Origin: Deinococcota bacterium
GTDB taxonomy: Bacteria > Deinococcota > Deinococci > Deinococcales > Thermaceae
Reading direction: 5' to 3'
Assembly: GCA_041695225.1 (NCBI GenBank)
Contig: JBGFRI010000011.1
Span: 68,653-132,652, forward strand
Length of the DNA stretch: 64,000 nt
Below are positions 4,662-61,641 of the stretch, piece after piece (position 1 is the first letter of the stretch; the number at the start of each line of letters is the position of its first letter). A model generated the notes under the pieces. That model was not told the origin of the DNA and did not search any database. It worked only from the letters and a program-made list of their open reading frames with translations. A program made the translations under genes and the position numbers.

Positions 4662-4760
4662 AGCAAAACGACGTTAACCAGAGGGCAGCTTTTGCTGCCC
4701 CTTTTCAGTTTGTGACAATGGCCCGGGCCAGGCGGGTAAACCCTGGCAAAGGTAGGAATT

Positions 4761-29386: not shown

Positions 29387-32300
29387 ATGCACGTCTTCAA
29401 TTTGCGCTCCCAGCTAATCCAGGATTACCGGCGGTTTGTTGAGAGCTTCATCCAGATCAGGGATGAGCGGATTTCCCGCTATGTGAAAGATAGGCTGGAC
29501 CAGGGCGTCTTCTGGCCCGAACCGCTCGTGCAGCTAAATCCGGGGTTTGCCCCGGGCGAGTCGCTGGAGGTCCTGGTGCAGGAAGGTGTGCTGCACCGGG
29601 AGATCCCCCGCATTTTCCGCCTCAAGGACAGGTCCGGCCAGCCCCTGATAAGGCTGCACTACCATCAAGAACAGGCTATCCGCACCGCAGTGCGGCGCGA
29701 AAACTACCTGGTAACCACCGGCACCGGCTCCGGCAAGAGCCTGGCCTACATCATTCCCATCGTGGACTGGGTACTGCGATATGGCAGCGGCAAAGGCATC
29801 CAGGCCATCGTGGTCTATCCGATGAATGCCCTGATCAACAGCCAGCTAGGAGAGCTGGACAAGTTCATTAACCACGGCTACCCCGATCACAGGGGCCCGG
29901 TGCGATTTGCAAGATACACCGGGCAGGAGACCCAGAAGGAGCGGGCGGAGCTCCAGGCCCGTCCCCCTGATATCCTCCTCACCAACTACGTGATGCTGGA
30001 CCTGATCCTGACCCGGCCCCGCGACAGCGGTCTGATTGAGGCTGCGAAAGGCTTGAAGTTTCTTGTACTCGACGAGCTTCACACCTACCGGGGACGGCAG
30101 GGCGCTGATGTGGCCTTGCTGGTGCGGCGGCTGCGGGAACGCCTGGAGGCTCATGAGGTGGTCTGTGTGGGGACATCGGCCACCCTGGCCGGCCAGGGAC
30201 GACAGGAGGAGCGGCAGCGCAGTGTAGCCCAGGTAGCCTCACGCATCTTCGGCCTGGAGGTGAAGCCCCAGAACGTTATCGGGGAACGGCTCCAGCGTAC
30301 CATCCGGCATTACGACTTCAGCGATCCGGGGACCAGAGAGCGTCTGCGTGAACGGGTGCAGAACGGCAGCACCCCGCAGGATTTCACCGGATTTATTGAA
30401 GACCTCCTGGCCAGCTGGATCGAGGAGACTCTGGGACTGTATGAAAGCGAAGGAGTCCTGGTTCGCCAGGCCCCCAGGCCGCTCACCGGAGCAGAAGGAG
30501 CGGCGGAACAGCTCGCCAGCCTGACCGGCCTGCCTCCAGAGGACTGCCAGCAGGCCCTGGAGGAGTGTCTGCTGACTGGCTATCAGCTGGTACGGCCCGG
30601 CAGCAGCCTGAAAGTCTTTCCCTTCCGGCTGCACCAGTTCATCAGCCAGGGTGACACCGTGTACGCCTCGCTGGACGAGGCTGAGACCCGGTTTCTGACC
30701 TTACGGGCCCAGCAGTTTGTGCCGGGCAGCCGTGAACAGTTGCTGCTACCCCTGGCCTTCTGCCGCGAGTGCGGGCAGGAGTTTTATACCGTCTGGCAGG
30801 AGAGCAGCCCCAAAGGCTCTCAGTACCTGGCCCGGCAGCTGAACGAACGCTACTCCAGTGATGGTGGAGAGGCCGGCTTCCTCTACCCCGGTGACTGGCC
30901 GGAGAGTCTAGAAGAGATCGAGGAGCGGGTGCCGGAGGACTGGCTGGATCCGGTAGAAGGCCGGCTCCGGCGGGATAAACATAAAAAGCTGCCTCAGCCG
31001 GTACAGGTTGACCTGCTGGGCAGGGTTGTATCCACAGGCGGGCGCAGGCTCCACTTCCTGGAGGCCCCTTTCGAGTTCTGCCCATGCTGTGGGGTAGCCT
31101 ATGGAGCCCAGCAGCGCTCAGATTTTGCCAAACTAAGCGGTCTTGGCTCCGAGGGCCGCAGTACCGCCACCACGGTACTCTCGCTCTCCAGCCTGCTCCA
31201 TCTGCGCGGGACAGAGCTGCCCCGGGAGGTTCAGAAACTGCTGTCTTTTACCGATAACCGCCAGGATGCCTCACTCCAGGCCGGCCACTTCAACGATTTT
31301 GTGCAGACCGGGCTGCTCAGATCGGCCCTCTACCGGGCGGTGGCGGATGCGGGCGAGGCTGGTCTGGGACACGACTGGCTGAGCCAGAGAGTCTTCGATG
31401 CCCTAAACCTCTCTCCGGGGGAGTATGCTAGCAATCCTGATGCCAGATACGGTGCTAAGGACAGCATCAGGCAGGCTCTTTACGATGTGTTGGGCTACCG
31501 GATCTACCGTGATCAGCTGCGGGGCTGGCGTATCACCGCGCCCAACCTGGAGCAGGTTGGTCTGCTACGGATCGGCTACCGGTCGCTGGATGAGCTGTGC
31601 CGCTGTGAGGAGGACTGGCAGAAGACCCACCCTTTACTGGCCGGCGCAAAGTCCGAGTTCCGGGAGAGGCTCTCCAGGGTGCTGCTGGATTATCTGCGGC
31701 GGGAACTGGCCATCAAGGTCCAGTACCTGAACAGAGACTTTCAGGACCGGATGCTCCAGGCCAGCAACTCGCACCTGATCGCTCCCTGGGCGCTGGATCA
31801 GTACGAAAAACTGGAGTATGCCCGGGTAGCCTACCCCCGGCCACGCCAGGCCGGAGATCCCTACGAGGCGGTCCATATCTCTCCCAGGGGAGGTTTCGGC
31901 CAGTACCTGCGGCGCAGCCAGGCCTCTTCAGGCCTGGATCGGGCGCTGGATACCCAGGAAATTGCGGTAATCATCCAGCAGCTGTTGCAGGTTCTCAGTT
32001 TGGCCGGACTGGTGGAGAAGGTTGATCCAGAAAGGCAGGGCTACCAGGTGGTGGCGGCTTTAATGAACTGGAAGGCCGGGGACGCCACCCAGCCGTCCAG
32101 CGATCCATTGCGGGTGCGCCTGCGGGAGGGGGCCGGGCGCAGGGTTAACTCCTTTTTTGCTGATTTTTACCGGTCTACCGCGCAGAACCTGGGCGGCATC
32201 GAGGCCCGGGAGCATACTGCCCAGGTGCCTTCGGACGAGCGGGAGGTTCGGGAGGAGCGGTTTCGCAGCGGCGAGCTGCCGGTACTGTACTGCTCTCCCA

Positions 32301-34510: not shown

Positions 34511-37305
34511 TGAACTACACCCCAGGCTCCCTGATCCGGGCGCGGGGCCGGGAATGGGTGGTGCTGCCCGGCTCAGAAGGCCCGCTGCTCCTGGCCCGGC
34601 CCATCGGGGGCACCGAGGAGGAGATCAGCGGGATCCATACCGGGTTAGAGGAGGTGGATCCTTCCAGCTTCGGCGCCCCCAGCTTAGAAGACCAGGGCGA
34701 TTACCGCTCGGGTCGTTTGCTGCGGGATGCGGTGCGCCTGACCTCGCGCAACGTGGCGGGCCCTTTCCGCTCCTTTGGGCGGATCGCGGTGGAGCCCCGG
34801 CCCTACCAGCTGGTCCCCCTTCTGCTGGCCCTGCAACAGGATCCGGTGCGGCTCCTGATCGCTGATGATGTGGGCATCGGCAAGACCGTGGAGGCCCTGC
34901 TGATCGCCCGGGAGCTGCTGGACCGGGGCGAGGTGCGTAGCCTGGCCGTGCTCTGCCCGCCGCACCTGGCCGAGCAGTGGCAGGAGGAGCTTTACCAGAA
35001 GTTCCACCTCGAGGCGGAACGCGTGGTCTCCTCTACCGCCGCCCGGCTGGAGCGCGGCCTGCGGATTGGCGAGACCATCTTCCAGCGCCATCCTCTCACG
35101 GTGGTCTCGCTGGACTTCATCAAGAGCGAACGCCGCCGGGAGGAGTTTTTACGCACTGCGCCCGACCTGGTTATCGTGGACGAGGCCCACACCTGCGCCT
35201 ATGGCGGGGTGGGCCGGGGCGGGCAGCACCAGCGCCATACCCTGGTGGCCCGGCTGGCGGAGGACCGCGAGCGGCACCTGGTCTTGGTGACCGCCACCCC
35301 CCACTCCGGCCACGAGGAGGCCTTCCGCTCCCTGCTGGCCCTGCTGAACCCGGCCTTCCGGGAGCTGCCCCCCGACCTCAGCCGGGAGGAGGCCGAGGGC
35401 TGGCGTCGCCGTCTGGCCCAGCACCTAGTCCAGCGCAAGCGGGCCGATATACGCCAGTTTCTGGACGAGCAGACCCCTTTTCCCGAGCGGCTGGAGGCCA
35501 CGCCGGAGCCCACCTATACCCTTTCGCCGGAGTACCAGCGGCTTTTAGACCGGGTGCTGACCTATGCCCGGGAGCTGGTGAGCGACCCCAGCGGCGACCA
35601 GCGGCACCAGCGGGTGCGCTGGTGGGCAGCCCTGGCCCTGCTGCGCTCGGTGGCCTCGAGTCCGGCTGCCGCTGCCATGGCGCTGCGCAACCGGGCAGCC
35701 GTAGCGGACGCCGCGACCGAGGCTTTAGTGGATGAGCTAGGCCAGCGGATGGTGCTGGATCAGGACGGGTATGACCAGGAGTTCGATCTGACCCCTGGAG
35801 GAGAAGTCAGCCAGGAGGAGTCCGAGCAGAGGCGGCTGCACGGGCTGGCCCGCGAGGCCCTGGCCCTGGCCGGCGAGAAAGACCGCAAGCTGCAAGGGGC
35901 GATCGAACTGGTGCGGGGCCTGCTGCAGGAGGGGCACCAGCCCATCGTTTTCTGCCGCTTCATCCAGACCGCTGAGTACCTGGCCGAACACCTGCGGCTG
36001 GCCCTGGGCGAGGGGGTGGCGGTGGAGGCCGTCACCGGCCACCTGAGTCCCCCGGAGCGCGAGCTGGCCGTGGAGCGGCTGGGCCGGGAGCCCGTCAGGG
36101 TGCTGGTGGCGACCGACTGCCTTTCGGAGGGGGTCAACCTGCAACACTATTTCAGCGCAGTGCTGCACTACGACCTCTCCTGGAATCCCACCCGCCACGA
36201 GCAGCGGGAGGGCCGGGTGGACCGGTACGGCCAGCCCTACCGGCAGGTCAAGACCGTGACCTATTTCGGGGCCAACAACCCGGTGGACGGAATTGTGCTG
36301 GAGGTGCTGCTGCGCAAACACCGGGCCATCCGCAACGACCTGGGCATCTCGGTGCCGGTGCCGGTGGACAATGATGCGGTGATCCAGGCGGTGATGCAGA
36401 GCATGCTGCTCAAGGGCACCCGCCGGACCGAGCAGCAGGGCCTGTTCGAGTCCTTTGATCAGAAGGGCCTGGAGGTGCAGTGGCGCAATGCCGCCGAGCG
36501 GGAAAAGCGTTCGCGCACCCTCTTCGCCCAGCAGACCATCCGTCCCGAGGAGGTGGCCCGTCAGCTCGCGCTGACCCGGGCAGCGGTGGGCTCGGGGGTG
36601 GAGGTGGAGCGGTTCTTGCTCGAGGCGGTCCAGGCGCATGGCGGCCAGGCCGAGCCGCTGGAGGAGGGCCTCTACCGCTTCAACCTTACCGGCCTGTCCC
36701 GTTCGCTGCGCGATCTGATCGGCCAGGACTCCTTCTCGGGCCGGTTCTCCCTGCCGGTGCAGCCGGGTGAGCTCTACCTGAGCCGCACCCACCCCTTAGT
36801 CGAGACGGTGGCCAGCTTCCTGCTGGAAAGCGCCCTGGATCCCCTGGCGGAGGGCCGGGCCCGGCGGGTCGGGGTGACCGCTACCAGCGCGGTAAGCCAG
36901 CTTACCACCCTGCTCCTGCTGCGGCTGCGCTACCATCTCACCACCACCTCCACCCGCCGCGACCGCCAGAGCTGGCAGCAGCTGGCCGAGGAGGTGCAGA
37001 CCGTAGCCTTTCGCGGCTTCCCCGACCAGCCGGACTGGCTGGACCCGGAAGAGCTGGAGGTTTTATGGCAGGCCCGTCCTACTGCCAACCTCTCCTTAGC
37101 CCAGGCCCGGGAGTTCGCCGGCCTGGTACTGCCAGAGCTGGGAAGGCTGGAAGGGTTCTTCCACCAACTGGCCCGCGAGCGAGCGGGGCGCTTTGAGGAG
37201 GCCCACCGAGAAGTCCGCCGGGCTGCCGATCTCAGGCTGCGCTACCAGGCCGAGCCGATCCTGCCGGTGGATCTGCTGGGCGTGTATCTCTATATTCCGA
37301 GGTAA
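34507..37305 (+). CDS. SNF2-family helicase (DrmD-like)
   Basis: LIADDVGIGKT, DEAH, TATPH, SEGVNLQ, EQREGRVDRYGQ. Confidence 0.9.
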   Translation: MMNYTPGSLIRARGREWVVLPGSEGPLLLARPIGGTEEEISGIHTGLEEVDPSSFGAPSLEDQGDYRSGRLLRDAVRLTSRNVAGPFRSFGRIAVEPRPYQLVPLLLALQQDPVRLLIADDVGIGKTVEALLIARELLDRGEVRSLAVLCPPHLAEQWQEELYQKFHLEAERVVSSTAARLERGLRIGETIFQRHPLTVVSLDFIKSERRREEFLRTAPDLVIVDEAHTCAYGGVGRGGQHQRHTLVARLAEDRERHLVLVTATPHSGHEEAFRSLLALLNPAFRELPPDLSREEAEGWRRRLAQHLVQRKRADIRQFLDEQTPFPERLEATPEPTYTLSPEYQRLLDRVLTYARELVSDPSGDQRHQRVRWWAALALLRSVASSPAAAAMALRNRAAVADAATEALVDELGQRMVLDQDGYDQEFDLTPGGEVSQEESEQRRLHGLAREALALAGEKDRKLQGAIELVRGLLQEGHQPIVFCRFIQTAEYLAEHLRLALGEGVAVEAVTGHLSPPERELAVERLGREPVRVLVATDCLSEGVNLQHYFSAVLHYDLSWNPTRHEQREGRVDRYGQPYRQVKTVTYFGANNPVDGIVLEVLLRKHRAIRNDLGISVPVPVDNDAVIQAVMQSMLLKGTRRTEQQGLFESFDQKGLEVQWRNAAEREKRSRTLFAQQTIRPEEVARQLALTRAAVGSGVEVERFLLEAVQAHGGQAEPLEEGLYRFNLTGLSRSLRDLIGQDSFSGRFSLPVQPGELYLSRTHPLVETVASFLLESALDPLAEGRARRVGVTATSAVSQLTTLLLLRLRYHLTTTSTRRDRQSWQQLAEEVQTVAFRGFPDQPDWLDPEELEVLWQARPTANLSLAQAREFAGLVLPELGRLEGFFHQLARERAGRFEEAHREVRRAADLRLRYQAEPILPVDLLGVYLYIPR

Positions 37306-37307
37306 CC

Positions 37308-40300
37308 TTGAAGCACAGCGGTTCGTTCCTCAAGACTGTAGGCGGCCTGCTGCCCCCTGAGCTGTTGCAGCGTATAGCGGCTCTGGACAGGCGGCTGGGG
37401 GGCCTCGAGGCCCCGGACTACCACCTGGTGGGCGAGCGGATCGATGAGGCCATCAGCCGCAGCTGGGGCCGGATGCTGGCGGTCTGGAGCGGGTTTCGGG
37501 AGGTTCGGGCCGGCCTGCCGCCGGGCGAGCCAGCCACCGGACCAACCCGGGAGCGGCTGCTTCTGCCGCTGTTCAAGGAGCTGGGTTACGGCCACCTGGC
37601 CCTGTCCCGGGGCCTGGAATTAGCCGGTAAAAGTTATCCCATCTCCCACCTGTGGAACGGGGTACCGATCCATCTGGTGGGGGTGGGCGTAGACCTGGAC
37701 CGGCGCACCCCCGGGGCGGTGGGGGCGGCCCGGCAGAGCCCCCACGGTCTGGTGCAGGAGTACCTGAACCGCTCGGAGGCCCTGTGGGGCCTGGTCTCCA
37801 ATGGCCTCAAGCTGCGGCTCCTGCGCGATAACGCCAGCCTCACCCGCCAGGCTTACCTGGAGTTCGATCTGGAGGGCCTGCTGGAGGCCGGGGCTTATCG
37901 CGACTTTGCCCTGCTCTGGCTGCTGGTCCATGAGTCGCGGCTTTATACCGATGGCCGGCCAGTCGCGGACTGCTGGCTTGAGGGCTGGAGCCAGCAGGGG
38001 GCGGAGCAGGGCAAGCGGGCCCTGGAGCGCTTGAAGGACGGGGTGCGGACGGCCATTGAGCAGCTGGGCCGGGGTTTTCTGGAGTATCCGGCCAACACTC
38101 AGTTGAAGGAGGCGCTGCGCACCGGAAGCCTCACCCCCCAGGGTTACTACCGGGAGTTATTGCGCCTGGTCTACCGGCTGCTCTTCCTCTTCACCGCCGA
38201 GGACCGGGAGGTGCTGCTGGAGCCGGTCCGGGAAGGGGCTCCCGCCGAGGAGCGGCAGCGCTTAGAACAGGCCCGTGCGGTCTACCTTAAGCACTACTCC
38301 ACCGCCCGGCTGCGCCATCTCGCCGAGCGGGTCCGGGGCAGCCGCCACTCTGATCTCTATCGGCAGCACCGGCTGGTCGCGGGCTGGCTGAACGAAGCGG
38401 GTGCCGGGGCGCTGGCCCTGGTGCCCATCAACTCCATGCTCTTCGATCCCCAGGCCACGCCCCATCTGAGCCGGGCCGAGCTGGGCAACCGCGACCTGCT
38501 GGAGGCGGTGCGCTCCCTGGCCTTCATCCGGGATAACTCGGTGCTGCGCCCGGTGGATTACAAGAACCTGGGGGCAGAGGAGCTGGGCAGCGTCTACGAA
38601 CAGCTGCTGGAGCTAGTTCCCCAGGTTCAGGCCGCAGCCGCCCAGTTCAGGCTGGAAAACTTTGCCGGCAATGAGCGCAAGTCCAGCGGCAGCTACTACA
38701 CCCCCAGTTCGTTGATCGAGACGGTGCTGGACCAGGCCCTCCAGCCCAAGCTGGCGGAAGCTGTGCAGCAGGCCCGCCGTCTGCCGGAGGCCGAGCGGGA
38801 GAGACCGATTCTCTCCCTGCGGGTAGTAGACCCAGCGGTAGGCTCGGGCCACTTCCTGATCGCCGCCGCCCACCGCATGGCCCGGGCCCTGGCCCAGCTG
38901 CGCTCAGGGGAGGAGGAGCCCGGGCCGGAGGTGCTGCGCGGGGCGCTACGCGATGTGATCCGGCACTGCCTCTACGGGGTGGATATTAATGAGATGTCGG
39001 CTGAGCTCTGCCGGGTGGCCCTGTGGATCGAGATGGCCGAGCCGGGCAAGCCCCTGGGCTTTTTAGACCACCATATCAAGGTGGGCAACTCGCTGATCGG
39101 GGCCCCGCCCAACTTCTACGAGCTGGGTATCCCGACCGAGGCCCATAAGCGGGAGGATGTGCCGGAGAGCGCCCGGGCCAGCGCTAAAACCCTGGGCAAG
39201 AAGAAACTGGAGGAGTGGCGTTCCCGCTCCCATGGCTTGATATTCAAAGAGCCTCTCGCGGTGCCGCCCCTGGATGCTCCTGAGGACTCTCTTGAGCAGG
39301 TGCGCTCCAAGGCCCAGGCTTACCAGGAGTGGCGCGAGAGCGAGGCGGTGCGGAAGTACCAGTTTGTGGCCGACTACTGGACTGCGGCCTGGTTCGCCCA
39401 GCCCGGTCCTGGCCAGAAGCTGCCGGATATGACCGGCCTGGTCACCCTGGTTGAGACCCAGTTGACCAGGCTGGAGGCCGGGGAGATGCGGCGCAGCAGC
39501 GGCCTGGCCGGGGAGGTGGAGGAGGCCCGGGAGCGTTACCGGTTCTTCCATTGGTGGCTGGAGTTCGCCGAGGTCTACTTTGACCGCCAGACCGGGGAGC
39601 TGAAGCCCGATGGAGGTTTTGATGTAGTGCTGGGGAATCCGCCGTGGGAGCGGGTCAAGCTCCAGGAGAAGGAGTTTTTTGGCTCCAGGCATCCGCTGAT
39701 TGCCGGGGCTGAGAATGCTGCCCGGCGCAGGAGGCTCATCGAGAGCTTGAAGGAGAGCGATCCTGCGCTCTACGCGGCCTTCCAGGAGGCTCTCAGCGTA
39801 GCCGAGAACCAGGCCAGCTTCCTGCGTACCTCGGGCCGCTTTCCCCTCACCGGCGGGGGTGATGTCAACACCTACCAGGTCTTCGCCGAGCACAAGCGCA
39901 GCCTGATGAACCGCCAGGGCCGGGCCGGGATGATCGTGCCCACCGGGATTGCCACCGATGATTCCAACAAGGAGTTCTTCGCCGACCTGGTAGGGCGGGA
40001 GCAGCTGGCGGCGCTGCTGGACTTTGAGAACCGCGAGGGTCTGTTTCCTGGGGTACACCGCTCGTATAAGTTCAGCGTCCTGGCCCTCAGGGGCCGGGAA
40101 GCCGGGAGCAGCGCCCCGGCCCGGCTGACTTTTTTCGCCACCAATGTGGGTCACCTCGAGGAGGTCGAGCGGGTCTTTAGCCTGAGCCCGGAGGAGTTTG
40201 CCCTGCTCAATCCCAATACCCGCACCTGCCCGGTCTTCCGCACCCGCACCGACGCCGAGCTGACCAGGAAGATCTACCGCCGGGTGCCGGTGCTGTGGCG

Positions 40301-41393
40301 GGAAGAGCCGGAGGAGAATCCCTGGGGTATCCGGTTCTTACGGCTTTTCGACATGTCCAACGACTCGCGCCTTTTTAAGACCCGGGGGGAACTCGAGGGC
40401 CTGGGCTACCGGCTGGTAGGAAACCGGATGATGAAGGAAGGCTCGGTCTACCTGCCGCTTTACGAGGCCAAGCTGATCTGGCAGTTTGACCACCGCTTTG
40501 CCACCTACGACGGGGGCGAGACCCATGACCTGACCCCGGCTGAACATGCCAGCCCGGAGGTCCTGCCCCTGCCGCGCTACTGGGTGCCAGAGGAAGAGGT
40601 GGAGGAGCGGCTGGTGCTGCGGGACAGGCAGGGGAATCTGGTCTGGCGGTGGGAGCGGGGGTGGTTGATGGGGTTTCGGGCTGTTGCTCGCTCAACCGAT
40701 GAACGCACTTTTATCGCTGGTCTCCACCCTAAATCTGCTGTTGGTAACAGCCTTGTCATGATTGGCTCGGATGTACCCCATGGACAACAGCAAGCTGTTC
40801 TAAATGCCAATCTTAATTGTATTATCTTAGACTACATCGTTCGCCAGAAAGTTGGGGGGACTAACATGAATATGTTCTACGTCAAGCAGTTCCCTGTCCT
40901 CCCCCCATCCGCCTACGCACCCGCAGACCTTCACTTCATCGTCCCGCGAGTCCTCGAGCTGACCTATACCGCCTGGGATCTGGCTCCCTTTGCTGAGGAT
41001 GTCTGGGACGAGGCCGATGACGGCCTGCGCGGGCTGTTGCGGCAGCAGTGGGAGGCCAACGGCGGCGGCCACCCTGACCAGCCGCCGGCCTGGGTGGATA
41101 GCCCTTATCCTTTCCCGCCTTTCCGCTGGGAGGCGGAGCGGCGGGCTCTGCTGCGGGCTGAGCTGGACGCTTATTATGCCCGGCTCTACGGTCTCGACCG
41201 GGAGGAGCTGCGGTACATCCTTGACCCGCAAAGCGTGAAGGGGCCGGACTTCCCCGGGGAGACCTTCCGGGTCTTGAAGGAGAAAGAGACCCGGGCCTTT
41301 GGCGAGTACCGGACTATGAGATTGGTGCTCGAGGCGTGGGATCGGCTGGATCAGTTAGGGTTTGGCAAAGAGTTAATTACTTCCCGGCAGTAA
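37308..41393 (+). CDS. large N6-adenine DNA methyltransferase (Eco57I/type IIG- or DrmMI-like)
   Basis: ELGSVYE, GSYYTP, DPAVGSGHFL, GNPPW; C-terminal TRD. Confidence 0.9.
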   Translation: MKHSGSFLKTVGGLLPPELLQRIAALDRRLGGLEAPDYHLVGERIDEAISRSWGRMLAVWSGFREVRAGLPPGEPATGPTRERLLLPLFKELGYGHLALSRGLELAGKSYPISHLWNGVPIHLVGVGVDLDRRTPGAVGAARQSPHGLVQEYLNRSEALWGLVSNGLKLRLLRDNASLTRQAYLEFDLEGLLEAGAYRDFALLWLLVHESRLYTDGRPVADCWLEGWSQQGAEQGKRALERLKDGVRTAIEQLGRGFLEYPANTQLKEALRTGSLTPQGYYRELLRLVYRLLFLFTAEDREVLLEPVREGAPAEERQRLEQARAVYLKHYSTARLRHLAERVRGSRHSDLYRQHRLVAGWLNEAGAGALALVPINSMLFDPQATPHLSRAELGNRDLLEAVRSLAFIRDNSVLRPVDYKNLGAEELGSVYEQLLELVPQVQAAAAQFRLENFAGNERKSSGSYYTPSSLIETVLDQALQPKLAEAVQQARRLPEAERERPILSLRVVDPAVGSGHFLIAAAHRMARALAQLRSGEEEPGPEVLRGALRDVIRHCLYGVDINEMSAELCRVALWIEMAEPGKPLGFLDHHIKVGNSLIGAPPNFYELGIPTEAHKREDVPESARASAKTLGKKKLEEWRSRSHGLIFKEPLAVPPLDAPEDSLEQVRSKAQAYQEWRESEAVRKYQFVADYWTAAWFAQPGPGQKLPDMTGLVTLVETQLTRLEAGEMRRSSGLAGEVEEARERYRFFHWWLEFAEVYFDRQTGELKPDGGFDVVLGNPPWERVKLQEKEFFGSRHPLIAGAENAARRRRLIESLKESDPALYAAFQEALSVAENQASFLRTSGRFPLTGGGDVNTYQVFAEHKRSLMNRQGRAGMIVPTGIATDDSNKEFFADLVGREQLAALLDFENREGLFPGVHRSYKFSVLALRGREAGSSAPARLTFFATNVGHLEEVERVFSLSPEEFALLNPNTRTCPVFRTRTDAELTRKIYRRVPVLWREEPEENPWGIRFLRLFDMSNDSRLFKTRGELEGLGYRLVGNRMMKEGSVYLPLYEAKLIWQFDHRFATYDGGETHDLTPAEHASPEVLPLPRYWVPEEEVEERLVLRDRQGNLVWRWERGWLMGFRAVARSTDERTFIAGLHPKSAVGNSLVMIGSDVPHGQQQAVLNANLNCIILDYIVRQKVGGTNMNMFYVKQFPVLPPSAYAPADLHFIVPRVLELTYTAWDLAPFAEDVWDEADDGLRGLLRQQWEANGGGHPDQPPAWVDSPYPFPPFRWEAERRALLRAELDAYYARLYGLDREELRYILDPQSVKGPDFPGETFRVLKEKETRAFGEYRTMRLVLEAWDRLDQLGFGKELITSRQ

Positions 41394-41732
41394 GGGCAGC
41401 ACGAGGCTTAACCTGATAGTTTCTTGCCTTGCTTCTGTTGTTCTTGCAGGTTTTAGCTTTATTGGTCCCAACAAGAACAACACCCATCCTCAGATGGAGT
41501 GCATCGCTCCGGTTATTGCAGGAATAGCAAAGCGGCACAATGCGTTCCTGGCCTCCACCTTCCTGGATCATGTCGCCACCGACCTCTGCTAAATTCGAGC
41601 ATTTCTCAACCGAACACTCTGATGGCCAGGACTTTCCTGGAAGATTCAACCAGCGCTGTTTCCAGCTGCCGCATTAACACGACCTCTCGCTCGTGCCCTT
41701 TTTGTTCTTCCAAAGCGTTCTTGTGGGAAACA
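41377..41732 (-). pseudogene. small Cys-rich HNH-like protein with in-frame stop at 41674-41676
   Basis: WKNKKGTSERSC*CGSWKQRW...CSVEKC...VPLCYSCN; start approximate. Confidence 0.5.
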
Positions 41733-41836
41733 AGGCTTTTCCCACCAAGAAGAGGGCAATACCACCTACGATAATAGTGAGTGGCTCTATTCTCATAACA
41801 TGATCTTAAAAGCTCCACTTCATTTTGCACAGCGCC

Positions 41837-43392
41837 TGTCAAGCCATCAATAAATGTTACCGAACCCTCTATCGTCGCTCCATCAAAGACATTACCGAGG
41901 CAGGGCCTCGTTTCGTGCGGTCCGGGGCTCCGAGGGTGACAATAGGGAGGCCCGGTTGCGGGTGAGCTCGTGCAGTGGTGAGTTCGTGCAGTTGTGACAC
42001 GCTCGGCAGCAGTGAGCTTTTGACGCTGCGGCAGAGCGGCCAGGCCATGGATCCGGGTAAGTTTGCGCTCAATCGCCTTGGCCAGCGCGAAGGGGTCGAG
42101 GCGAGCCCGCAGTTCCTGGAGGGTGCGGATCCTGGTGAGATCACCCTGGCCGGAGGCGATGAGGCGGTCCAGCGGGGTCTGCGGCTGGTCGTAGACGCGG
42201 TGGAGCCGGGAGCCGAGGCGGACTTTCTGAACCAGCTTCACCGAGGGCTGGAAGAGGTTCATCATCACGTTTCGCCAGCTGACTAACCTGCGCTATCAGG
42301 CTCCACTCGTGACGGTAGAGGTCGTTGATGGCCGCGAGCGCCTCGGGGGTGTCGTAGCGGTCCCAGCCCAGCAGTTTGCGGACATGGATTAATCATCCTC
42401 GTCCTCGGCCAGTCCGGTAATTAATCGATGGGTCCAGTTTTTCTGCTCGACTAGGTTACGGCTTTGCCGGAATCGCGTAAGCGACTCGCCTCGTGGGCGT
42501 TGTCGTCTGCGGGTGAACTGAATGGAGTAGGTAGTGGAGTGGCCGGTCATGTCTGATGCCTACTTCATCCCGCGGGCCTGGCAGTAGCGAAACAGGTGGC
42601 CATTGATGAACTCGACCCCATTATCGGAGTCCAGGCCCTTGAGCAAGAGGGGCAGGGCCGCGGCGATCTCCTCCAGGGCCTTGTGGACGCCGTACTGGCT
42701 CTTGCCCAGTGCCGCCCGAGTCTCGGTCCAGGCGCTGGCGATGTCGGTAAAGTTCAACGAGTGGAGGTACGAGCCGTCAGTAGCGCCCCCGCCGTGATCT
42801 ACCAGATCGATCTCGCCAAACCCTGGCGCCGTGACCTCCCAGCGATCGGCTTTGATGGGGATGTGGTGTTTGAGGAGGGTACCGGGTTTGGTACGACCGT
42901 ACTGGCGGCGGCTAAGCCGCTGCTTATGCGGCTTTAGCCGGCGGTCTATGGTGCGAGGGCTGATGGCGAGCAACTGCTGCTCGACTGATGGGGGGATAGC
43001 CCAGCGCTGCTTGGCCCAGGGTAGCCAGAGCGGCAGCAGGGCTTTCAGACGCACCGACCAGGGAAAGTCTGCGGCTTCCCAGATGGCCTTGAGCACGGCC
43101 AGCGCCTGGTCTCCATAGGTCCGGGCGGGGGATCGGCGTGAGCGCCCTGGCGGGAGGCGGCCAGCACCCGGATGGCTGCCTTGCGATGATAGCCCAGGGT
43201 GGCACAGAACTCGTCCAGGATCTGCCCCTTGGCCTGTTTAGAGGCTTGGGCATAGCGCTTGCTAACGGCTTGGATATACTCCCGCTTCGACATCGGACTC
43301 ATGGCGAATCTCCATGGAAACAAGGTCAGTCTCGGTAACAGTTTCCATGGCGAGACGATACTCCCTTCGGTAACAGTTTAGATGGCGCGATT
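41837..43392 (-). mobile_element. degenerate ISNCY-type DDE (rve) insertion sequence
   Basis: Transposase fragments RY..ASK..KG.ILDEFC, EIDLV.H.G, DSDNG.EF, DDNAH/VEQKN; long imperfect inverted ends with repeated RTTACCGA boxes, TGT at 41837; 43392 boundary uncertain. Confidence 0.85.
42452..42492 (+). repeat. 41-bp micro-insertion, copy 1
   Basis: Splits DDNAH|VEQKN; matches the reverse complement of 61172-61213 except for one T. Confidence 0.9.
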
Positions 43393-43439
43393 GGGGGGAT
43401 GTTGTCGTTTGAACTTTTTTAGTACACTACAAATCAAGT

Positions 43440-44921
43440 ATGCAACTACGGCTAGATGAGGTTTTCAAAATTTCTGGCGTACCGACTTTCACATTTGTCA
43501 AACCTACCGAATACACTAAGCTTCTGGTTTCCTTGCAAACACCAGGAAGAAGCCTCGTAGTCGAGGGGCCTTCTGGGATCGGTAAAACTACCAGCGTCAA
43601 ACAGGCCTTAAAAGAGTTGGGAATGCAACATTCGGCTACAGTACTCAGCGCCCGAAGACAGTCAGATAGAGAAGTTGTTACCCTAATTCCAGTAATGAAG
43701 GATAACGGCATAGTTATCATTGATGACTTTCATCGCCTTGATAATGATGTAAAAAGCTCTATTGCCGACTTCGCAAAAATCTTGGCAGATGAGGAAGACC
43801 CCAACACAAAACTCATTCTAATTGGCATAAATCGAGCTGGTGAAACACTTGTCAATTTTGCAGCCGACTTGGCAAACCGGATCGACAATATCCGATTTGA
43901 GGCAAATCCTTCAGAAAAAATTGAAGAGTTGATTTCTAAAGGCGAACAGGCACTGAATGTGAAACTATCATCGAAAAGCCAAATCGTAGATGATGCACGA
44001 GGCAGTTTCTACATCACACAGATGCTTTGTCATCATGCTTGTATTTTGCGTGACGTTGCAACTTGCCAACCCGTTCAAAAGACAATTGATGTGGGAATTG
44101 ATGCCATTAAGTTGGGCGTACTAGAGGATGTGTCAAGGCAATTCAAAAACTCCGTAATCAAGTTTGTTCGAGGGCCAAAGTTTAGACCTGGAGGACGGGG
44201 ATCCTATGTTCATCTCTTAAAGTGGATTGCAGAATCTACAGAGTGGTCTATGCACATACGTAGGCGGTTGGCACAAAACCCTGAGCTTCGGCCAAGTATT
44301 GTGCAAATCTTAGACAAGGGTTTCCTGGAAGGTTTTCTTCGAGCCAATGAAGAATTTGGGAATCTACTGCACTACGATCCACACACAGGAATTCTCGTTG
44401 TCGAAGATCCAAGGTTTATGTACTTTATTCGCAACATAAACTGGACTGTACTTGCCAAGGACGCAGGGTTTTTGGAGGTAGAGTTCCCACACAAATACGA
44501 TTTTGCACTTTCGTTTGCTGGTGCAGATCGAATTACTGCTGAAATGTTCGCTGCAAGATTAATTGAAGCCGAAGTTAGTGTTTTCTACGATAAGAATGAA
44601 CAATCATCTATTCTTGCCGAGAATGTTGAAGAGTACTTAGCTCCAATCTATCAGAGCCAAGCAAGATTTGTTGTCGTTTTCCTTACCAATAACTATCCGC
44701 AAAGAGTATGGACCAAGTTTGAGTCCGATCAATTTAAGACAAGAATGGGAGATGGTGATGTTATTCCAATTCGATTTGAAGACTCATCTGAAAGTTTCTT
44801 TAGTGAAACGTCAAAATTGGGAAGTATTTTTATTGACAAATCTAAAGACACTGAAGAGCAGATAGACCAAGCAATTGAGTTGCTTCTCAGAAAAATAGAG
44901 GAGTCTAGAATCAAAAATTAG
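43440..44921 (+). CDS. P-loop ATPase fused to C-terminal TIR domain (candidate defence effector)
   Basis: GPSGIGKTT, IIDDFH; YDFALSFAGADR...VFYD...WTKFE; visibly AT-richer than flanks. Confidence 0.85.
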   Translation: MQLRLDEVFKISGVPTFTFVKPTEYTKLLVSLQTPGRSLVVEGPSGIGKTTSVKQALKELGMQHSATVLSARRQSDREVVTLIPVMKDNGIVIIDDFHRLDNDVKSSIADFAKILADEEDPNTKLILIGINRAGETLVNFAADLANRIDNIRFEANPSEKIEELISKGEQALNVKLSSKSQIVDDARGSFYITQMLCHHACILRDVATCQPVQKTIDVGIDAIKLGVLEDVSRQFKNSVIKFVRGPKFRPGGRGSYVHLLKWIAESTEWSMHIRRRLAQNPELRPSIVQILDKGFLEGFLRANEEFGNLLHYDPHTGILVVEDPRFMYFIRNINWTVLAKDAGFLEVEFPHKYDFALSFAGADRITAEMFAARLIEAEVSVFYDKNEQSSILAENVEEYLAPIYQSQARFVVVFLTNNYPQRVWTKFESDQFKTRMGDGDVIPIRFEDSSESFFSETSKLGSIFIDKSKDTEEQIDQAIELLLRKIEESRIKN

Positions 44922-45186
44922 ATTTCGATAATTGAGCGTGAAACCTACTGGGCCTGCAAGCATCAACTGCCACGGAGATATTCGGGCCATAACTTTTGGT
45001 CAGTCTGAAGTGCGGTTGCAGATTGTTGGAGCTGGTGAGCGCATCGGTGTTTTCACGGATCACGGTACGCTGGCAGTCAGCACCAAGGAGGCGGGCAGTG
45101 CAGGTGAGTATCGCATCCGCACCCCGAGCCCGGCGACAGCTGTTCAGCTGGACGATTGTCCGGTGGTTGATCTAAGGTGAAGCGCT

Positions 45187-45400
45187 TCATACTGCGTGCG
45201 CAACCCCCAGCTCCACAGCCACCGTATGGAGGGGCTTGTCCCAGGTCCACAGCCGCGCATCGCCGGCCAGGACTACCGAAGCCAGTAGGTGGACATCGAG
45301 GTAGCCGAGGCCCCGGCCCATCAGGGCGTACTGGTTAATAAAGGTCAGGGCCTCGGGGTCGGTGGCCCTGGGCATGTGGCGGCCCAGCAGGCAGCAGTTA
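45187..45400 (-). pseudogene. 3' fragment of VapC/PIN toxin
   Basis: GRGLGYLDVHLLAS...LWTWDK; 5' part missing. Confidence 0.7.
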
Positions 45401-45823
45401 CTCGGTTTGGTTCCAATCGAAGGCAAGGGTTTTGACCCAGGGCATATGGGCAAAGTCTTGCGCGTTTTCAGTAACAAGCACCCTGTTGGTTGCCCATGCA
45501 CAGGCGGCAATCATCAGGTCGAAAGCTTTTTTGTGGGGGTTGCGTGTTTTGGGCAAGCCCAGTTTGACCGCTTCTCGGGCGGCTTTGTTGGCGGCCTTTT
45601 CATCAAAAGGTACAATCTCAAATCGCTCAAACAAAGCCTCGATGCTCTTTTCTTGTCGGGGGTCAACCACAAACTCGCCAACTGCATACTCGATCTTCAC
45701 CAGGGCGCTGGTCACAAGCTGCTGGTCCTTGAGCGCCTGCAACACACGCAAAGCCTCCGGCTGCTTGCGCCGGAGGGCAATAAAAAAGTTGGAGTCCAGG
45801 AGAATGCGCCCGGGTATTTTCAT
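45398..45823 (-). CDS. vapC: VapC PIN-domain toxin
   Basis: ILLDSN, FDLMIAA, LVTENAQDF. Confidence 0.9.
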   Translation of the reverse strand: MKIPGRILLDSNFFIALRRKQPEALRVLQALKDQQLVTSALVKIEYAVGEFVVDPRQEKSIEALFERFEIVPFDEKAANKAAREAVKLGLPKTRNPHKKAFDLMIAACAWATNRVLVTENAQDFAHMPWVKTLAFDWNQTE

Positions 45824-46035
45824 TACTGTGTGGCTTTAGCAATGACGCTCTTAGCCCGCTTTCTGCTTCGGACTTTGGAAGCTTTTGCCAACACAGCAAA
45901 CTCACGACCGCTAAAGCTCTTGATGGCTGCGGCCATTTTCTTGGCTCTTGCAGGGGTCAAGGGGGGCATGCCCTCCAAGATAGCCAGCACCTGCGCGGCT
46001 TTTGGGCTAACAGGCTGGATAACAGCGGCCTTCAT
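45823..46035 (-). CDS. probable cognate antitoxin
   Basis: Small basic ORF coupled (TAATG) upstream of vapC. Confidence 0.6.
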   Translation of the reverse strand: MKAAVIQPVSPKAAQVLAILEGMPPLTPARAKKMAAAIKSFSGREFAVLAKASKVRSRKRAKSVIAKATQ

Positions 46036-46306
46036 GTCTCTTATTGTACATCAATACGCACCACTGATCACGGTGATTCCCATTACCAGCCAGGGTCTGG
46101 ACAGTAGCTACCCCGTGCAGCTGCTCCTGCCCTATACCCAGACCGGCTTGCCCAGAGATTCCAAAGCCCAGGTAGCTGATTGGGCAGATCCGCAAAGACC
46201 GTATCGTGCGCCCGCTAGGACGGCTGAGCGCCGAGCTACTGGCCGAGCTTGACCGCAGAATTCGCGAGCATCTGGCATCGTAGTTAGGGATGGCGGGTGG
46301 CTGCGC

Positions 46307-46830
46307 TTAACCACCCAGCTCGGCCCGCGCCAGCAGCTTACGCTTCAGCTCGGGGGTAAGGCGGATGCCGCCGTGCTCCAGCCTGGCGAGATCGTCCTCA
46401 AGCGCGCGGTCGGCGCGCCCCAGACGATGAATGCGTAAGAGAATCCCGAGGGTTCCAACCAGCGGCAGCCCGATACCCTGCGCGTACCTGCGCGCTTTCA
46501 GGTCGTCCAGTACGACCAGGATCGGTGCACCCCCGCCTGCGTGAGATCGAGCGCCAAGGCGATGACCTCTTCCTCGCCGGGGTCAGCCAGGAGGTCGTTG
46601 CGGACTCTAAGCAGCGTCTCGTCACTTGGGTGACGCAGCTCGACCCAGTCGCGCCGGGGGATACTGCTTCCCGGAGCGCCGGGACGAGCGGTGAGTTCAG
46701 CCGCAACTTGCGGGGAAACAAGGACGCGATACAAGCCAGGGAGCAGTGATGTATAGCCCAGCAGGTCGAGAAAGATGAGCGGACTGGCGTCGAAGACCGC
46801 CTCAATCCTGGTGGGCGTGCCGGAGTTCAT
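46307..46830 (-). pseudogene. DUF3368-type PIN protein, frameshift at G5 run (46530-46534)
   Basis: VFDASPLI, DPGEEEVIALA, then DDLKARR..GTLGIL in the shifted frame; +1 G restores 174 aa. Confidence 0.75.
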
Positions 46831-47050
46831 CGTCCAGGTCGTCGGGGGTGAGGTTGGGGTACGGCAGCCCGTGGCGTGTGTACCACTGGACCGCCTCCCA
46901 GCGGCTCATGCCGAGCAGCGTTCCTGCCCTACCAAGGCTCATCCGCCCCTCGCTCACCAGCTTGAGCAGGACACCCTCAAGAACGTCCTGCTGCAACTGG
47001 GGGCCAGCAGCATCGAGAACGTCCTGCGGTAAGTCGAGTCGTACAGCCAT
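46802..47050 (-). CDS. UPF0175-family antitoxin
   Basis: L..EG.MSLGRA..LLGMSR.E...DDLDDEL; AGGGAGG RBS. Confidence 0.85.
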   Translation of the reverse strand: MAVRLDLPQDVLDAAGPQLQQDVLEGVLLKLVSEGRMSLGRAGTLLGMSRWEAVQWYTRHGLPYPNLTPDDLDDELRHAHQD

Positions 47051-47200
47051 TCACCTACCTCCCTTTCATTATAGTAGCGGTTGCAGGGCTAAGCGAAAGA
47101 GTACCCTGCGCCGCGAACTGGGGAAGGAGCTGGTCTTGCTGGCCTGGGCCATAGGGGAATACCGGGCCTGCCCCTTCACTTTGCTGCGGGCTTAAGCGCG

Positions 47201-47452
47201 ATTCCCGCCATCATTGAAACTCTAGTTCGGCGGGGGGCAGAGATAAATGCGCGGAATCAGAGAGGTATGACGCCTCTGCACTATGCGGCGGCCAAAAGCA
47301 CTACTTCAGCCATTGCCGTAACACTGCTAGAGCTGGGGGCCGACCCCAGAGTGCGTACCTCGGCAGGCAGCACTGCCTGGGATCTGATTCAACACAACCA
47401 GAAACTGCGAAACACCCCGGCCTTTCGGCGGCTCAGCGAGATACGGTTTTAG
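47201..47452 (+). pseudogene. ankyrin-repeat protein 3' remnant
   Basis: LVRRGAEINARNQRGMTPLHYAA...LLELGADP; no 5' part. Confidence 0.7.
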
Positions 47453-47649
47453 CAGAAGCACTGACCTGGCCGGGCCTTTCACACCGCCAATCAAACGTGA
47501 GTGTGTTGCCGGCTGTGTACGTGATTGTGCATAACTCTCGGCGATCACGGTGCATCGCTCGGTGGCGATTAATACCCAGGTAGTGAAAGTGGCGATTGCA
47601 GGTATGACAGTAACAGGTTTTCATTGCGGTCTCCTTCTCGTTGGTTGGA

Positions 47650-48402
47650 TCAACCATTCCGCCCCAGTGCCCTCGAGTAACTCTCCGCCACCTGGACCAG
47701 CGAACTCTCAGCATAGATCTGGGTGGTCTTGGGATTGAGGTGTCCCAGGAATTTCTGCAACTGCTCCTGCGGCATCCCCCGGTCTAACAGGATCTGGGCA
47801 ATGGAGTGGCGCAACAAGTGGGGGTAGACTCTTTTGTTAATGCCCGCTGCCAGCGCAGCCTGGTGGATCAGCTTCTGGATGGCCCGCTGGGAGTAGCGGT
47901 TATGCCGGTTGCTCTCAAAGAGGTAGCCCCGGGTCCTTCCTCCGAGGTGCATCCGCAACTCCTGGGCCAGGCCGGTCAGGATAGGCACGTAGCGCACCGA
48001 GTCTTTCTTGGCCTTGGAGATGTATGCCTGGGGAGCCTGGCCGTCGAGGGATACATCCTCCACCCGGAGGTTCACAAACTCGCTGACCCGGGCCCCGGTA
48101 TAAAACAGAGTCTTGAGCATCAGACCGTAGACCGGCTTCTTCTGGTTCAGGCGGTAGGCCGCCTCGAGCAGCTGCTCGATCTCCTGGGCGCTCAGGCGCT
48201 CCACCGTCCGCCGGCGGTTGGAGGGCTGGGTGAGTTCCAGGGCCCGGCGTACCCGCTCGACTACATACTTGGTCTGGTCGTAGTCCAGGTGAGCCTTGCG
48301 CCAGAGGCGGGTGGTCTCTCCGATCACCCACTCCAGCTCAGAGTTCGCTTTCGATTTCTGACCACGCACTTCAGTCAGTTTTAGAGAGGTTTGGAGGTTC
48401 AT
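47650..48402 (-). CDS. tyrosine recombinase (Xer/TnpI-like resolvase)
   Basis: TGARVSE, K, HLLRH, LGH....TQIY catalytic set. Confidence 0.95.
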   Translation of the reverse strand: MNLQTSLKLTEVRGQKSKANSELEWVIGETTRLWRKAHLDYDQTKYVVERVRRALELTQPSNRRRTVERLSAQEIEQLLEAAYRLNQKKPVYGLMLKTLFYTGARVSEFVNLRVEDVSLDGQAPQAYISKAKKDSVRYVPILTGLAQELRMHLGGRTRGYLFESNRHNRYSQRAIQKLIHQAALAAGINKRVYPHLLRHSIAQILLDRGMPQEQLQKFLGHLNPKTTQIYAESSLVQVAESYSRALGRNG

Positions 48403-60901: not shown

Positions 60902-61372
60902 TTAGCGTTTCACCAACTTCCGCAGCCGCGGCAAGGCTTGCTGGGGGGTTTGTACACTGGTTTTACCGATCTTTTTGAGGGCCGTGATGTGCCGGTCGTC
61001 GCTCACCAGCAGGCTAGCCCTGGCCTCCAGGGCGATGGCCGCGATGAAATCGTCATGGGGGTCGTCGGGAACTATAAAGGGTATAGACTGGGGGTTCAGC
61101 ACCACTGCCCGCAGCCTGAGCAGGTTGATCAGCGCCCCGAACCTGGCCCTGCCGATGCGCCGCTGGGCCACGAGGCGAGTCGCTTACGCGATTCCGGCAA
61201 AAGCCGTAACCTACCTGCGCCTGCTCACGCGTCGCAGCTCCTCGAGCTGGGCCTCGGAGGTGTACAGGGTGCAAGCCCCTTGGGACCAGAGCATCAACAG
61301 CTCCGACTCCACAGGAAAAAGCGCCCCTTGCAGGGCACGGATGTAAACCTGAGTATCAAAGACGACCCTCAG
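60902..61372 (-). pseudogene. PIN-family toxin disrupted by 42-bp insertion with two stops; CTG start
   Basis: RVVFDTQV...EELRRV [insert] ...DPHDD...LVSDDRH. Confidence 0.85.
61172..61213 (-). repeat. 42-bp micro-insertion, copy 2
   Basis: TAGGTTACGGCTTTTGCCGGAATCGCGTAAGCGACTCGCCTC. Confidence 0.9.
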
Positions 61373-61608
61373 CGCGACCTCGCGATCCTGCGCCGCACCT
61401 CATGCACCAGATGGTCAATCTCTTCGGCGCTCAGGCCCTCTTTGCCTTCAGGCAGTTCGGCAAACACCGTCTGGCGGGCCTGGGCTACTTTCAGATGCTC
61501 GCTGATGGCCACGCCCAGGGCCTTCTCGGGGGTGGTCTGCTCGAGGAGTGCGATCTCAGACAGCTCCTGGAGGGTTTTTTTGCTGAGCCTGGGGGCGGGC
61601 AGAGCCAT
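61369..61608 (-). CDS. antitoxin (RHH-like) of PIN module
   Basis: GLSAEEIDHLVHEVRR tail; stop overlaps the PIN start. Confidence 0.7.
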   Translation of the reverse strand: MALPAPRLSKKTLQELSEIALLEQTTPEKALGVAISEHLKVAQARQTVFAELPEGKEGLSAEEIDHLVHEVRRRIARSR

Positions 61609-61641
61609 ACGGCAATTTTATCACTTTTCAGGGGTTGCTCC

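Follow-up and report, generated by a model that had tools for sequence, protein, structure and literature searches.

How a single transposase gene could come to hold four different inserts of 31–45 nucleotides (nt) is the question raised by a locus on contig JBGFRI010000011.1 of a Meiothermus draft genome. The DNA analyzed, hereafter the window, is a stretch of 64,000 nt (C12:68653-132652) of this draft, labeled G000 here, which comprises 2.83 Mb with 59.6% G+C in 50 contigs; the assembly is 92% complete, so that multi-copy insertion sequences (IS) may be unassembled. Positions given without a contig are those of the window. The explanation that we favor, with a probability of about 0.8, is that ultra-small, non-coding and non-autonomous mobile units, which have recently multiplied in this Meiothermus lineage, hit a dead transposase gene one after another. 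The inserts represent at least two unrelated types of such units plus one orphan.

Inserts and Deletions in the Transposase Pseudogene

The host gene is an rve-type (DDE) transposase pseudogene on the minus strand (41950..43302), as delimited by tblastn with the intact relative P0001, whose residues 1-403 are spanned by the match. The intact form has ~420 amino acids (aa) and the relatives have 409–459 aa; the longest unbroken piece of the pseudogene is 178 aa, for which P0001 is the best relative (79% identity) among 6,556 relatives at E <= 0.001 in 8,000 candidates scored. Because P0001 scores under every curated cut-off, with 29.5 bits for Pfam rve (cut-off 32.6), 41.9 bits for the IS481 model (E = 8.6e-11; cut-off 224) and 23.4 bits for the IS3 model (cut-off 160), the host gene is predicted to encode an rve-like DDE transposase that falls outside any named IS family by these cut-offs. 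The element is found in one copy in G000 and was absent from the 40 other genomes of the order searched. A further copy of this IS family has left a 5'-end remnant of ~100 nt at C36:~4650-4760 (locus L182).

The boundaries of the lesions were set by nucleotide alignment to the metagenome contig L105, whose intact 420-aa gene is P0001 in protein. The initial annotation of the window had described inserts of 31, 44, 41 and 45 bp, here termed ins1 to ins4, clustered in 300 bp of the catalytic core of the transposase, a stretch that proves to be the C-terminal part of that core. All four were recovered at the positions given there, allowing for the rotation that the short flanking repeats permit, and alignment to intact relatives by tblastn of P0001 and P0002 left gaps at exactly four places in both printed alignments. 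Ins1 (42268..42298, without strand) consists of 31 nt with ATCA/TGAT repeated on both sides, hence AT on both sides, while ins2 (42388..42431, plus strand) consists of 44 nt with ATGG/CCAT repeated on both sides; both are absent from L105 and from a contig of the sediment run X11 that is described below. Ins3 (42452..42492, minus strand) is exactly 41 nt long, reads GAGG...CCTA on the minus strand and is found at CAC|GTC with no duplication, where it splits the His and Val of NAH|VEQKN in the transposase. Ins4 (42524..42568, plus strand) is 45 nt long, has AT on each side where L105 has a single AT, and possesses 9/10 inverted ends (ATGGAGTAGG / CCTACTTCAT). The duplicated flanks reported for ins1 (ATCA), ins2 (ATGG) and ins4 (AT) are all seen in comparison with L105, and the 9/10 terminal inverted repeats of ins2 and ins4, which give AT-to-AT spans of 46 and 47 nt, are present in the sequence as they had been described.

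Two deletions accompany the inserts. A short deletion had been suspected after the residues FTR; the residues SRPYKK are missing in the tblastn alignment, and alignment to L105 resolves the loss as a 17-nt deletion at 42506..42507 (without strand), located between 2-nt repeats, by which the SRPYKK codons are lost and the frame is shifted. The other, a lesion additional to those of the initial annotation, is a 1-nt deletion at 43153..43154 (without strand), which is recognized by a change of frame in tblastn and by an extra letter in X11 and accounts for the upstream frameshift in the N-terminal part of the transposase.

L105 is without all four inserts, and no match to a family member was found in 77 metagenome loci of the host IS family (218,583 nt), 56 of which contain an open frame of at least 380 codons. 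Thus, the intact relatives do not contain the inserted segments.

Order of the Lesions

Contigs of four further public runs in the Logan collection (X7, X8, X9 and X11), with possible source samples left out, were placed on 41900-43400. Three of these runs, X7, X8 and X9, are from groundwater and reproduce 42130-42476 and 42497-43400 with 0-1 differences. Their contigs break at ins3, where the summed depth goes up by orders of magnitude and loose ends are found at 42451-42453 and 42491-42496, as is expected of a high-copy 41-nt unit.

The sediment run X11 yielded a contig of 1,307 nt at a depth of 28 that is ~97.5% identical to the window. It skips ins1 at the joint 42263>42295 (31 nt, with 4-nt ambiguity), contains 51 letters between 42387 and 42507, which correspond to 20 + 14 host nt and the 17 deleted nt, and has one extra base behind 43153, so that it is without both deletions. 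As it is colinear through ins4, this contig carries ins4 and is without ins1, ins2 and ins3. Because ins4 is found there alone, ins4 is the oldest lesion, and ins1–ins3 and the two deletions arrived later in the G000 lineage. On the strand of the gene, ins4 introduces an in-frame TAG, and the gene was therefore already dead before ins1–ins3 came. Two minor contigs of X11 show further variants: one contains ins4 as a tandem duplicate, in which the sequence goes back 45 nt, and the other, at a low depth of 4.5, passes directly from 41948 to 43246 without the intervening 1,297 nt of the IS, which may reflect either a deletion variant or an unrelated repeat join.

Families of the Inserted Units

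Ins3 belongs to a family with 53 blast hits and 46 anchored copies in G000, 41 of the latter being within 3 mismatches of a 37-nt core. An identical 39-nt core is shared by 28 of the 41 copies, the mean pairwise identity is 96%, and ins3 itself is identical to the G-type master copy, with seven of the 41 copies being identical over all 41 nt. The units have the ends (T/G)AGG...CCT(A/C), of which only 4 nt (TAGG/CCTA) are inverted: among the 46 copies the first base is T in 30, G in 11, C in 4 and A in 1, and the last base is A in 37, G in 4, C in 4 and T in 1, while C precedes the unit in 31 and G follows it in 26. The predicted fold of ins3 consists of two 4-bp hairpins, which a short stem closes (-8.4 kcal/mol, z = -1.0). 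Among the 46 copies are four diverged head-to-tail variants of the unit at a contig end (C23:472-638), which have a 42-nt period.

Ins2 belongs to a family of 44-nt units that start with ATGGATTAATCA (f44; nhmmer E = 4.7e-9 for ins2) and is a palindromic-end variant within the GATTAATC family. An iterated nhmmer profile of f44 gave 100 hits at E <= 1e-3 in G000, where the word GATTAATC occurs 178 times against ~49 expected, and tandem arrays of f44 copies with a 44-nt period exist. The family is diverse, with a mean identity of 74% over 45 full-length copies; ins2 is up to 35/44 identical to other copies, compared with 29/44 at most for shuffles. Its members have the ends ATRG...CTAT and AT at both ends in 96-100% of the 45 full-length copies, and the consensus ends match each other only loosely (ATRGAYT). 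For ins4, the nearest relative is located at C19:15218 and is 37/45 identical, compared with at most 28/45 for ten shuffled queries. Ins4 resembles the 45-nt GGAGTAGG family, and its first 10 nt, a central CGGNCATG and the final CAT are also found in a family of 44-45-nt units that start with ATGGAGTAGG and have 40 profile hits at E <= 1e-3. Folding of ins4 gives z = -1.0, and ins1 and ins2 fold no better than shuffles.

Ins1 lacks terminal inverted repeats. Its best other match in the whole of G000 is 20/27, which is the level of shuffles, and it has no match with up to 3 mismatches in 67 other Thermaceae genomes and no exact match in metagenome and viral contigs. The suggestion of the initial annotation that several families of micro-MITEs (miniature inverted-repeat transposable elements) accumulate in dead DNA essentially holds for ins2, ins3 and ins4, for which family copies or a relative are found, and does not extend to ins1, which has no relative in the sequences searched. 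The label MITE itself is too strong, as ins3 leaves the target unduplicated and has inverted ends of just 4 nt, and a parent IS whose ends match was not found.

At C11:32564-32612 and C45:5273-5318, units of the GATTAATC family abut start codons, such that the terminal CAT/ATG overlaps or supplies the ATG, and in one such case the N-terminus of the gene differs from that of the version in G017, the nearest sampled relative. Units of this family may sometimes donate start codons.

Filled and Empty Sites

Six independent sites of the 41-nt unit have an empty counterpart for comparison; the gain is exactly +41 nt at all of them, and a duplication is found at none. In addition to the host IS in the window, for which L105 and the X11 contig represent the empty form, the places are a rhodanese gene at C38:35268, where G000 has CGCT[41]GCGG and G017 has CGCT|GCGC; a small conserved open reading frame (ORF) at C38:32193, also compared with G017 and with one adjacent substitution; a host repeat, of which three loci have the exact empty form CCCACC|AGGGG (C36:52923, C17:117047 and C34:28623) and four are filled (C10:14749, C34:21371, C36:175304 and C44:28416); a copy of the unit that is nested inside another copy (C34:61472-61537); and a heptamer array at C28:19711, the period of which is restored on removing 41 nt. 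TA is absent from all of these empty sites, which excludes an IS630-type reaction for the 41-nt unit.

The host repeat is ~80 nt long and ends in a CCTCTCCC...GGGGAGAGG hairpin, and the 41-nt unit, when present, is found in the loop of this hairpin. Such copies may have arisen by the spread of the composite as a whole or by repeated hits on the loop. Insertion into hairpin loops as a general rule was considered and rejected: pairing of the flanks is found only in the four host-repeat copies, and the mean contiguous pairing is 0.59 compared with 0.65 for shuffled partners.

The AT-flanked units behave differently from the 41-nt unit, in that three comparisons (ins2, ins4 and C36:4726) show a single AT at the empty site and two ATs at the filled one, the repeat being CCAT in two of the three. 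The f44 copy at C36:4726 is located exactly on the AT of the start codon in the second IS remnant, and its empty form is the 5' end of the IS in the window. Doubling of AT fits a 2-bp duplication and equally fits a shared AT core. When f44 copies were compared with G017, one was filled in both genomes, two were beside start codons in rearranged intergenic DNA and one had no ortholog. The flanks of the insertion sites contain no motif beyond C|G or AT, and the preference of ins3 for C|G is weak.

Distribution among Genomes

In addition to the 41 copies in G000, the ins3 core was found in 25 other genomes of the genus three times in G017, twice in G024, once each in G023 and G013 and not at all in the remaining 21. 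All three copies of G017 are orthologous to copies of G000. Exact matches to ins3 amount to six stretches in four metagenome-assembled genomes of Meiothermus, Thermaceae or Deinococcota, among 185,579 species represented by one genome each. The f44 pattern matches 47 times in G000, four times in G017 and not at all in 66 other Thermaceae genomes. Since the copy numbers of both families are high in G000 and few or none elsewhere, the ins3 and f44 families are the product of a recent burst in the G000 lineage and have expanded almost only there.

Both copies of G024 are located in an rve remnant, and that of G013 splits a DDE_5/DDE_Tnp_1 transposase. These copies in the transposases of other species suggest, without proving it, that mobile DNA carries the units from one genome to another. 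In G023, a 41-nt unit is found inside a gene for an RlaP-family nucleotidyltransferase (C53, locus L004, ~1499-1539), where it is read in frame as 14 extra codons in a frame that is open for 384 codons.

Locations of Copies and the Question of Targeting

The DNA outside open frames of at least 150 codons makes up 15.2% of G000 and holds 27 of the 41 ins3 copies and 106 of the 137 copies of the f44 and fGG families. After exact removal of the unit, an open frame of at least 40 codons is present on both sides at 16 of the 41 ins3 sites, compared with 76% of random sites. Read by eye, at least six real genes are broken by ins3 copies: the transposase, two PIN toxins, a tandem-rhodanese gene and two small conserved ORFs. 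The PIN and rhodanese assignments are supported by Pfam and those of the small ORFs are not, including one that we take to be DUF4160-like and for which Pfam likewise gives no support. One of the PIN genes is in the window (VapC-like; 60905-61399, minus strand), where the other ins3-family copy of the window (61172..61213, plus strand) interrupts it. This copy is 42 nt long because of an extra A in the loop, and so keeps the frame, and it brings two in-frame stops. PIN_3 is matched by the pieces on either side (E = 1.1e-4 and 5.4e-3), and the gene is part of a vapBC-like pair (60905-61617, minus strand). A 271-aa frame that passes through the same copy on the plus strand is probably spurious, as its only relatives are weak and stop-ridden. 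The second broken PIN gene (C22:~99230-99683) has a ribbon-helix-helix (RHH) antitoxin upstream and also forms a vapBC-like pair. Near-random insertion followed by selection would leave the pattern of survivors that is observed.

The transposase, the two PIN toxins and the density of inserts in the window could instead reflect targeted or locally nucleated insertion, by which the units would prefer mobile and toxin genes or the DNA beside an existing unit, so that a hot spot silences transposons and toxins. If family elements are uniformly distributed, 0.019 are expected per 305 nt, and three or more have P = 1.2e-6. Genome-wide, 21% of the gaps between elements are below 100 nt, compared with 0.6% under a Poisson model. 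The second remnant of the same IS family (C36:~4650-4760) also contains an f44 unit, at the start codon; three of the four non-orthologous copies in other species (two in G024 and one in G013) are within transposase remnants; and after ins4, three insertions and the 17-nt deletion accumulated within ~250 nt beside it. The clustering in the genome is, however, mainly that of tandem arrays of one family (eight chains), and attraction between different families is not supported, as ins3 copies are no nearer to f44 and fGG units than random positions are (2.5% within 300 nt compared with 2-7% under two nulls, with the IS copy excluded). Most copies are intergenic, the flanks have only C|G or AT in common, and their complementarity is not general. 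By our own arithmetic, a null in which the 133 elements outside long frames are confined to their 431 kb expects ~0.18 windows of 305 nt and ~2.8 windows of 1,350 nt with at least three elements, and the density of the cluster is much less striking once this confinement to ~15% of the genome is allowed for. Moreover, the transposase gene was dead before ins1–ins3 came, and disruptive insertions can be expected to persist precisely in dispensable genes. We therefore regard targeting as unlikely, and the pile-up in the transposase gene would most simply represent neutral accumulation.

Repair, Spacer Acquisition and Assembly

Explanations in which nothing transposes were also considered. In a phylum known for heavy double-strand-break repair, the Deinococcota, the inserts could be filler DNA copied or captured from abundant repeats while breaks were repaired. 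Such repair patches would account for the unique ins1 with its 4-nt microhomology, the 17-nt deletion between 2-nt repeats, the missing duplication of ins3 and the absence of a transposase partner; yet the same exact ends and the length of 41 nt recur at six independent sites, which fits a defined excised molecule and not template switching, and with 28 of 41 cores identical and a burst that is confined to one lineage, this origin appears very unlikely. As its second option, the initial annotation had proposed that spacer-sized hairpin DNA is written into a hot spot by some process, with transposons being inactivated in this way. Lengths of 31-45 nt are indeed like those of spacers, and G000 has three arrays of clustered regularly interspaced short palindromic repeats (CRISPR) while the locus is within a defense island. 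However, three of the four inserts have their copies among the resident repeats of G000 rather than being unique foreign DNA, none of the four is bracketed by repeat units, the same sequences are found at dozens of mostly non-coding loci, and the gene that would be inactivated was dead already. Of the 59 spacers in the three arrays, one has an 11-mer in common with the region, and chance alone predicts ~1; an origin from phages or plasmids finds no better support, with no phage match, no exact match in viral contigs for any of four patterns and a sole, weak plasmid match on transposase coding sequence. Adaptive recording of foreign DNA in the transposase gene is thus hardly credible, and the units of G000 are very small non-autonomous mobile repeats that accumulate in dispensable DNA and not the product of a spacer-writing process.

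The probability that repeat units were wrongly spliced into the contig is equally negligible. A draft of 50 contigs invites this explanation, as does the breaking of the contigs of other runs at ins3, and local misassembly had been raised in the initial annotation. Nevertheless, ins1, ins2, ins4 and the junction into ins3 recur in the contigs of three runs with the same 0-1 differences, the fourth run represents a coherent older allele, and orthologous 41-nt copies are found in an independently assembled species, G017.

Mobilization of the Units

Based on these results, we propose that the units would insert almost anywhere, that selection would remove hits in needed genes, and that an enzyme acting in trans may integrate each unit in the form of a defined excised molecule. 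In the 41-nt family, exact, fixed-length and duplication-free integration points to such a molecule and argues against a staggered-cut DDE reaction, and a single-strand/HUH-type or a recombinase-type reaction may be the best fit. The AT-flanked families may be inserted either with a 2-bp duplication or at a shared AT core.

Several observations weigh against mobile units as the explanation. A mobilizing enzyme or parent element was not found in searches of G000, where the transposases comprise one rve, one DDE_Tnp_1 and no DDE_3 (IS630-type) match; left and right ends of ins3 do not occur 0.1-5 kb apart anywhere in G000, and the DNA between paired f44 ends holds ordinary genes, namely those for PhoU, two-component systems and transporters. 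The sole Y1 (HUH) transposase of G000 is a PF01797 match at C8:43106-43459, where an IS605-type tnpA is followed by a tnpB-like frame; no family member is found within ~3 kb of it, and the resident IS605/TnpB loci have no similarity to the units beyond 11-nt chance matches. The left flank of ins3 copies is variable and misfits the fixed target word of IS200/IS605 elements, for which reason the canonical IS200/IS605 target rule is disfavored. There is no strand bias relative to GC skew (16:10 for ins3, 27:37 for f44 and 12:17 for fGG), the skew itself being weak. No unit folds more than ~1 standard deviation better than shuffles. Ins1 has no family, and the comparison of ins4 with family profiles is not significant (E = 5.7 in one search and no hit in the other). 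G017 is only ~80% identical to G000 and provided two clean empty sites for ins3 and none for f44, and the empty sites of X11 are those of assembled contigs and not of raw reads. Finally, we estimate a probability of ~0.01 (own arithmetic) that ins1–ins3 and the 17-nt deletion would fall within ~250 nt beside ins4 in a dead gene of 1,350 nt, a grouping that hints at some local effect.

Parentage by RAYT, IS630-type elements or IS605 ends was sought in G000 and not found. Translational bypass or intron-like removal of the units was also rejected, by inspection of the junctions: an in-frame TAG opens two of the genic ins3 copies, but take-off and landing codons that match each other were not seen, and the IS contains other frameshifts besides the inserts.

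A bolder version of the mobile-unit explanation, which is possible and in our view doubtful, is that G000 contains integration machinery that moves the 41-nt units and, separately, the 44-45-nt AT-flanked units without a classical transposon architecture, perhaps favoring existing units or mobile and toxin genes. If so, few mobile DNA units that integrate exactly and without duplication would be smaller, and the pile-up in the transposase core would be the by-product of a new mechanism of transposition or oligonucleotide integration and not plain neutral accumulation.

Comparison with Known Small Repeats

The question of how repeats far shorter than any MITE move is unsolved and dates from the description of the small dispersed repeats (SDR) of cyanobacteria and of many REP-like families. 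The SDR of Nostoc and other cyanobacteria, reportedly described by Elhai et al. in 2008, are said to have units of ~21-27 nt, to nest in other repeats including heptamer tandem repeats, to be present or absent between related genomes and to have no known transposase. The units of G000 are similar in being very small, non-coding, dispersed and present or absent between relatives, and in having nested copies in a genome with abundant heptamer repeats, one of which contains an ins3 copy. They differ in size (41-45 nt compared with ~21-27 nt), in belonging to the Deinococcota and not to cyanobacteria, in the exact gain of 41 nt without duplication at six sites and in the burst within one species-level lineage.

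The units of the mosaic small noncoding repeats (SNRs) of D. radiodurans are larger than 41-45 nt. SNRs have 295 copies of at least nine types and are not found in D. geothermalis (PMC1978522). The units of G000 are alike in that many small non-coding families of the same phylum have expanded in one species and are absent from a congener.

Repetitive extragenic palindromes (REP) and the REPINs formed from them are described as structured repeats of 20-40 nt that are mobilized by RAYT tyrosine (HUH) transposases, of high copy number, mostly extragenic and lineage-specific (PMC3116915, PMC3733652), with a GTAG or CGTC tag at one end of the palindrome (PMC3733652). The units of G000 are comparable in being high-copy, mostly extragenic, sometimes in genes and lineage-specific in abundance, and a single-strand HUH route would explain the missing target duplication of ins3. 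They differ in that neither end has the GTAG/CGTC tag, no RAYT gene flanked by units was found in G000 and the hairpins are short and energetically undistinctive.

Like classical MITEs, the units are non-autonomous, dispersed and gene-breaking, and ins2 and ins4 have 9/10 inverted ends and a 2-bp flanking repeat; unlike MITEs, they are far shorter, ins3 has 4-nt ends, no duplication and no TA at its empty sites, and no parent IS with the same ends was found in the 92% complete G000. The absence of a duplication also fits IS200/IS605-derived mini-elements (PATE-like), the fixed 4-5-nt target word of which is not matched by the units, with C at -1 in only 31 of 46 copies. The Rickettsia palindromic elements (RPEs) are small repeats, longer than 41-45 nt, that land in protein-coding genes and are kept in frame. 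The ins3-like copy in the RlaP gene of G023 is read in frame as RPEs are, but the length of the unit is not divisible by three, and with few exceptions a copy inside a gene destroys it. No literature on mini-elements in Meiothermus, Thermus or Thermaceae was found, in a search that most subscription journals lay outside.

G000 can be regarded as a natural experiment on such repeats, with a recent burst, exact pairs of empty and filled sites, environmental alleles that order the events and a sister species with three copies, and since Meiothermus can be cultured, genetic work on the mover is feasible. For annotation, frameshifted "pseudogenes" of transposases, PIN toxins and other proteins become explicable by recognizable units of 41-45 nt, at which draft assemblies break.

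Genomic Context and Other Repeats

The transposase pseudogene is directly downstream of DISARM-like defense genes, in the defense island mentioned above. The island region of the window (36000-48000) has no counterpart in G017, and Rfam gave zero matches within 41900-43400. The DISARM-like cluster (29387-41393) encodes a DrmD-like SNF2 helicase, a large helicase and a 1,361-aa methyltransferase-like protein, and is adjoined by a TnpB-family gene on the minus strand (27656-28864; NCBIfam guided_TnpB, E = 1.4e-75).

Short repeats of other kinds are plentiful in G000. 16-mers that occur at least six times cover 1,693 intervals, including three CRISPR repeat types, and heptamer tandem repeats with GACCTGC/GACCTGA, AAGGTCG/AAGGTCA and ATAGCTG/ATAGCCG units are very abundant. 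Longer composite repeat families, with units that contain CGAAGCAATCCAG and TCATTGCGAGGAGGCC, have 30-45 copies each and often adjoin GATTAATC units.

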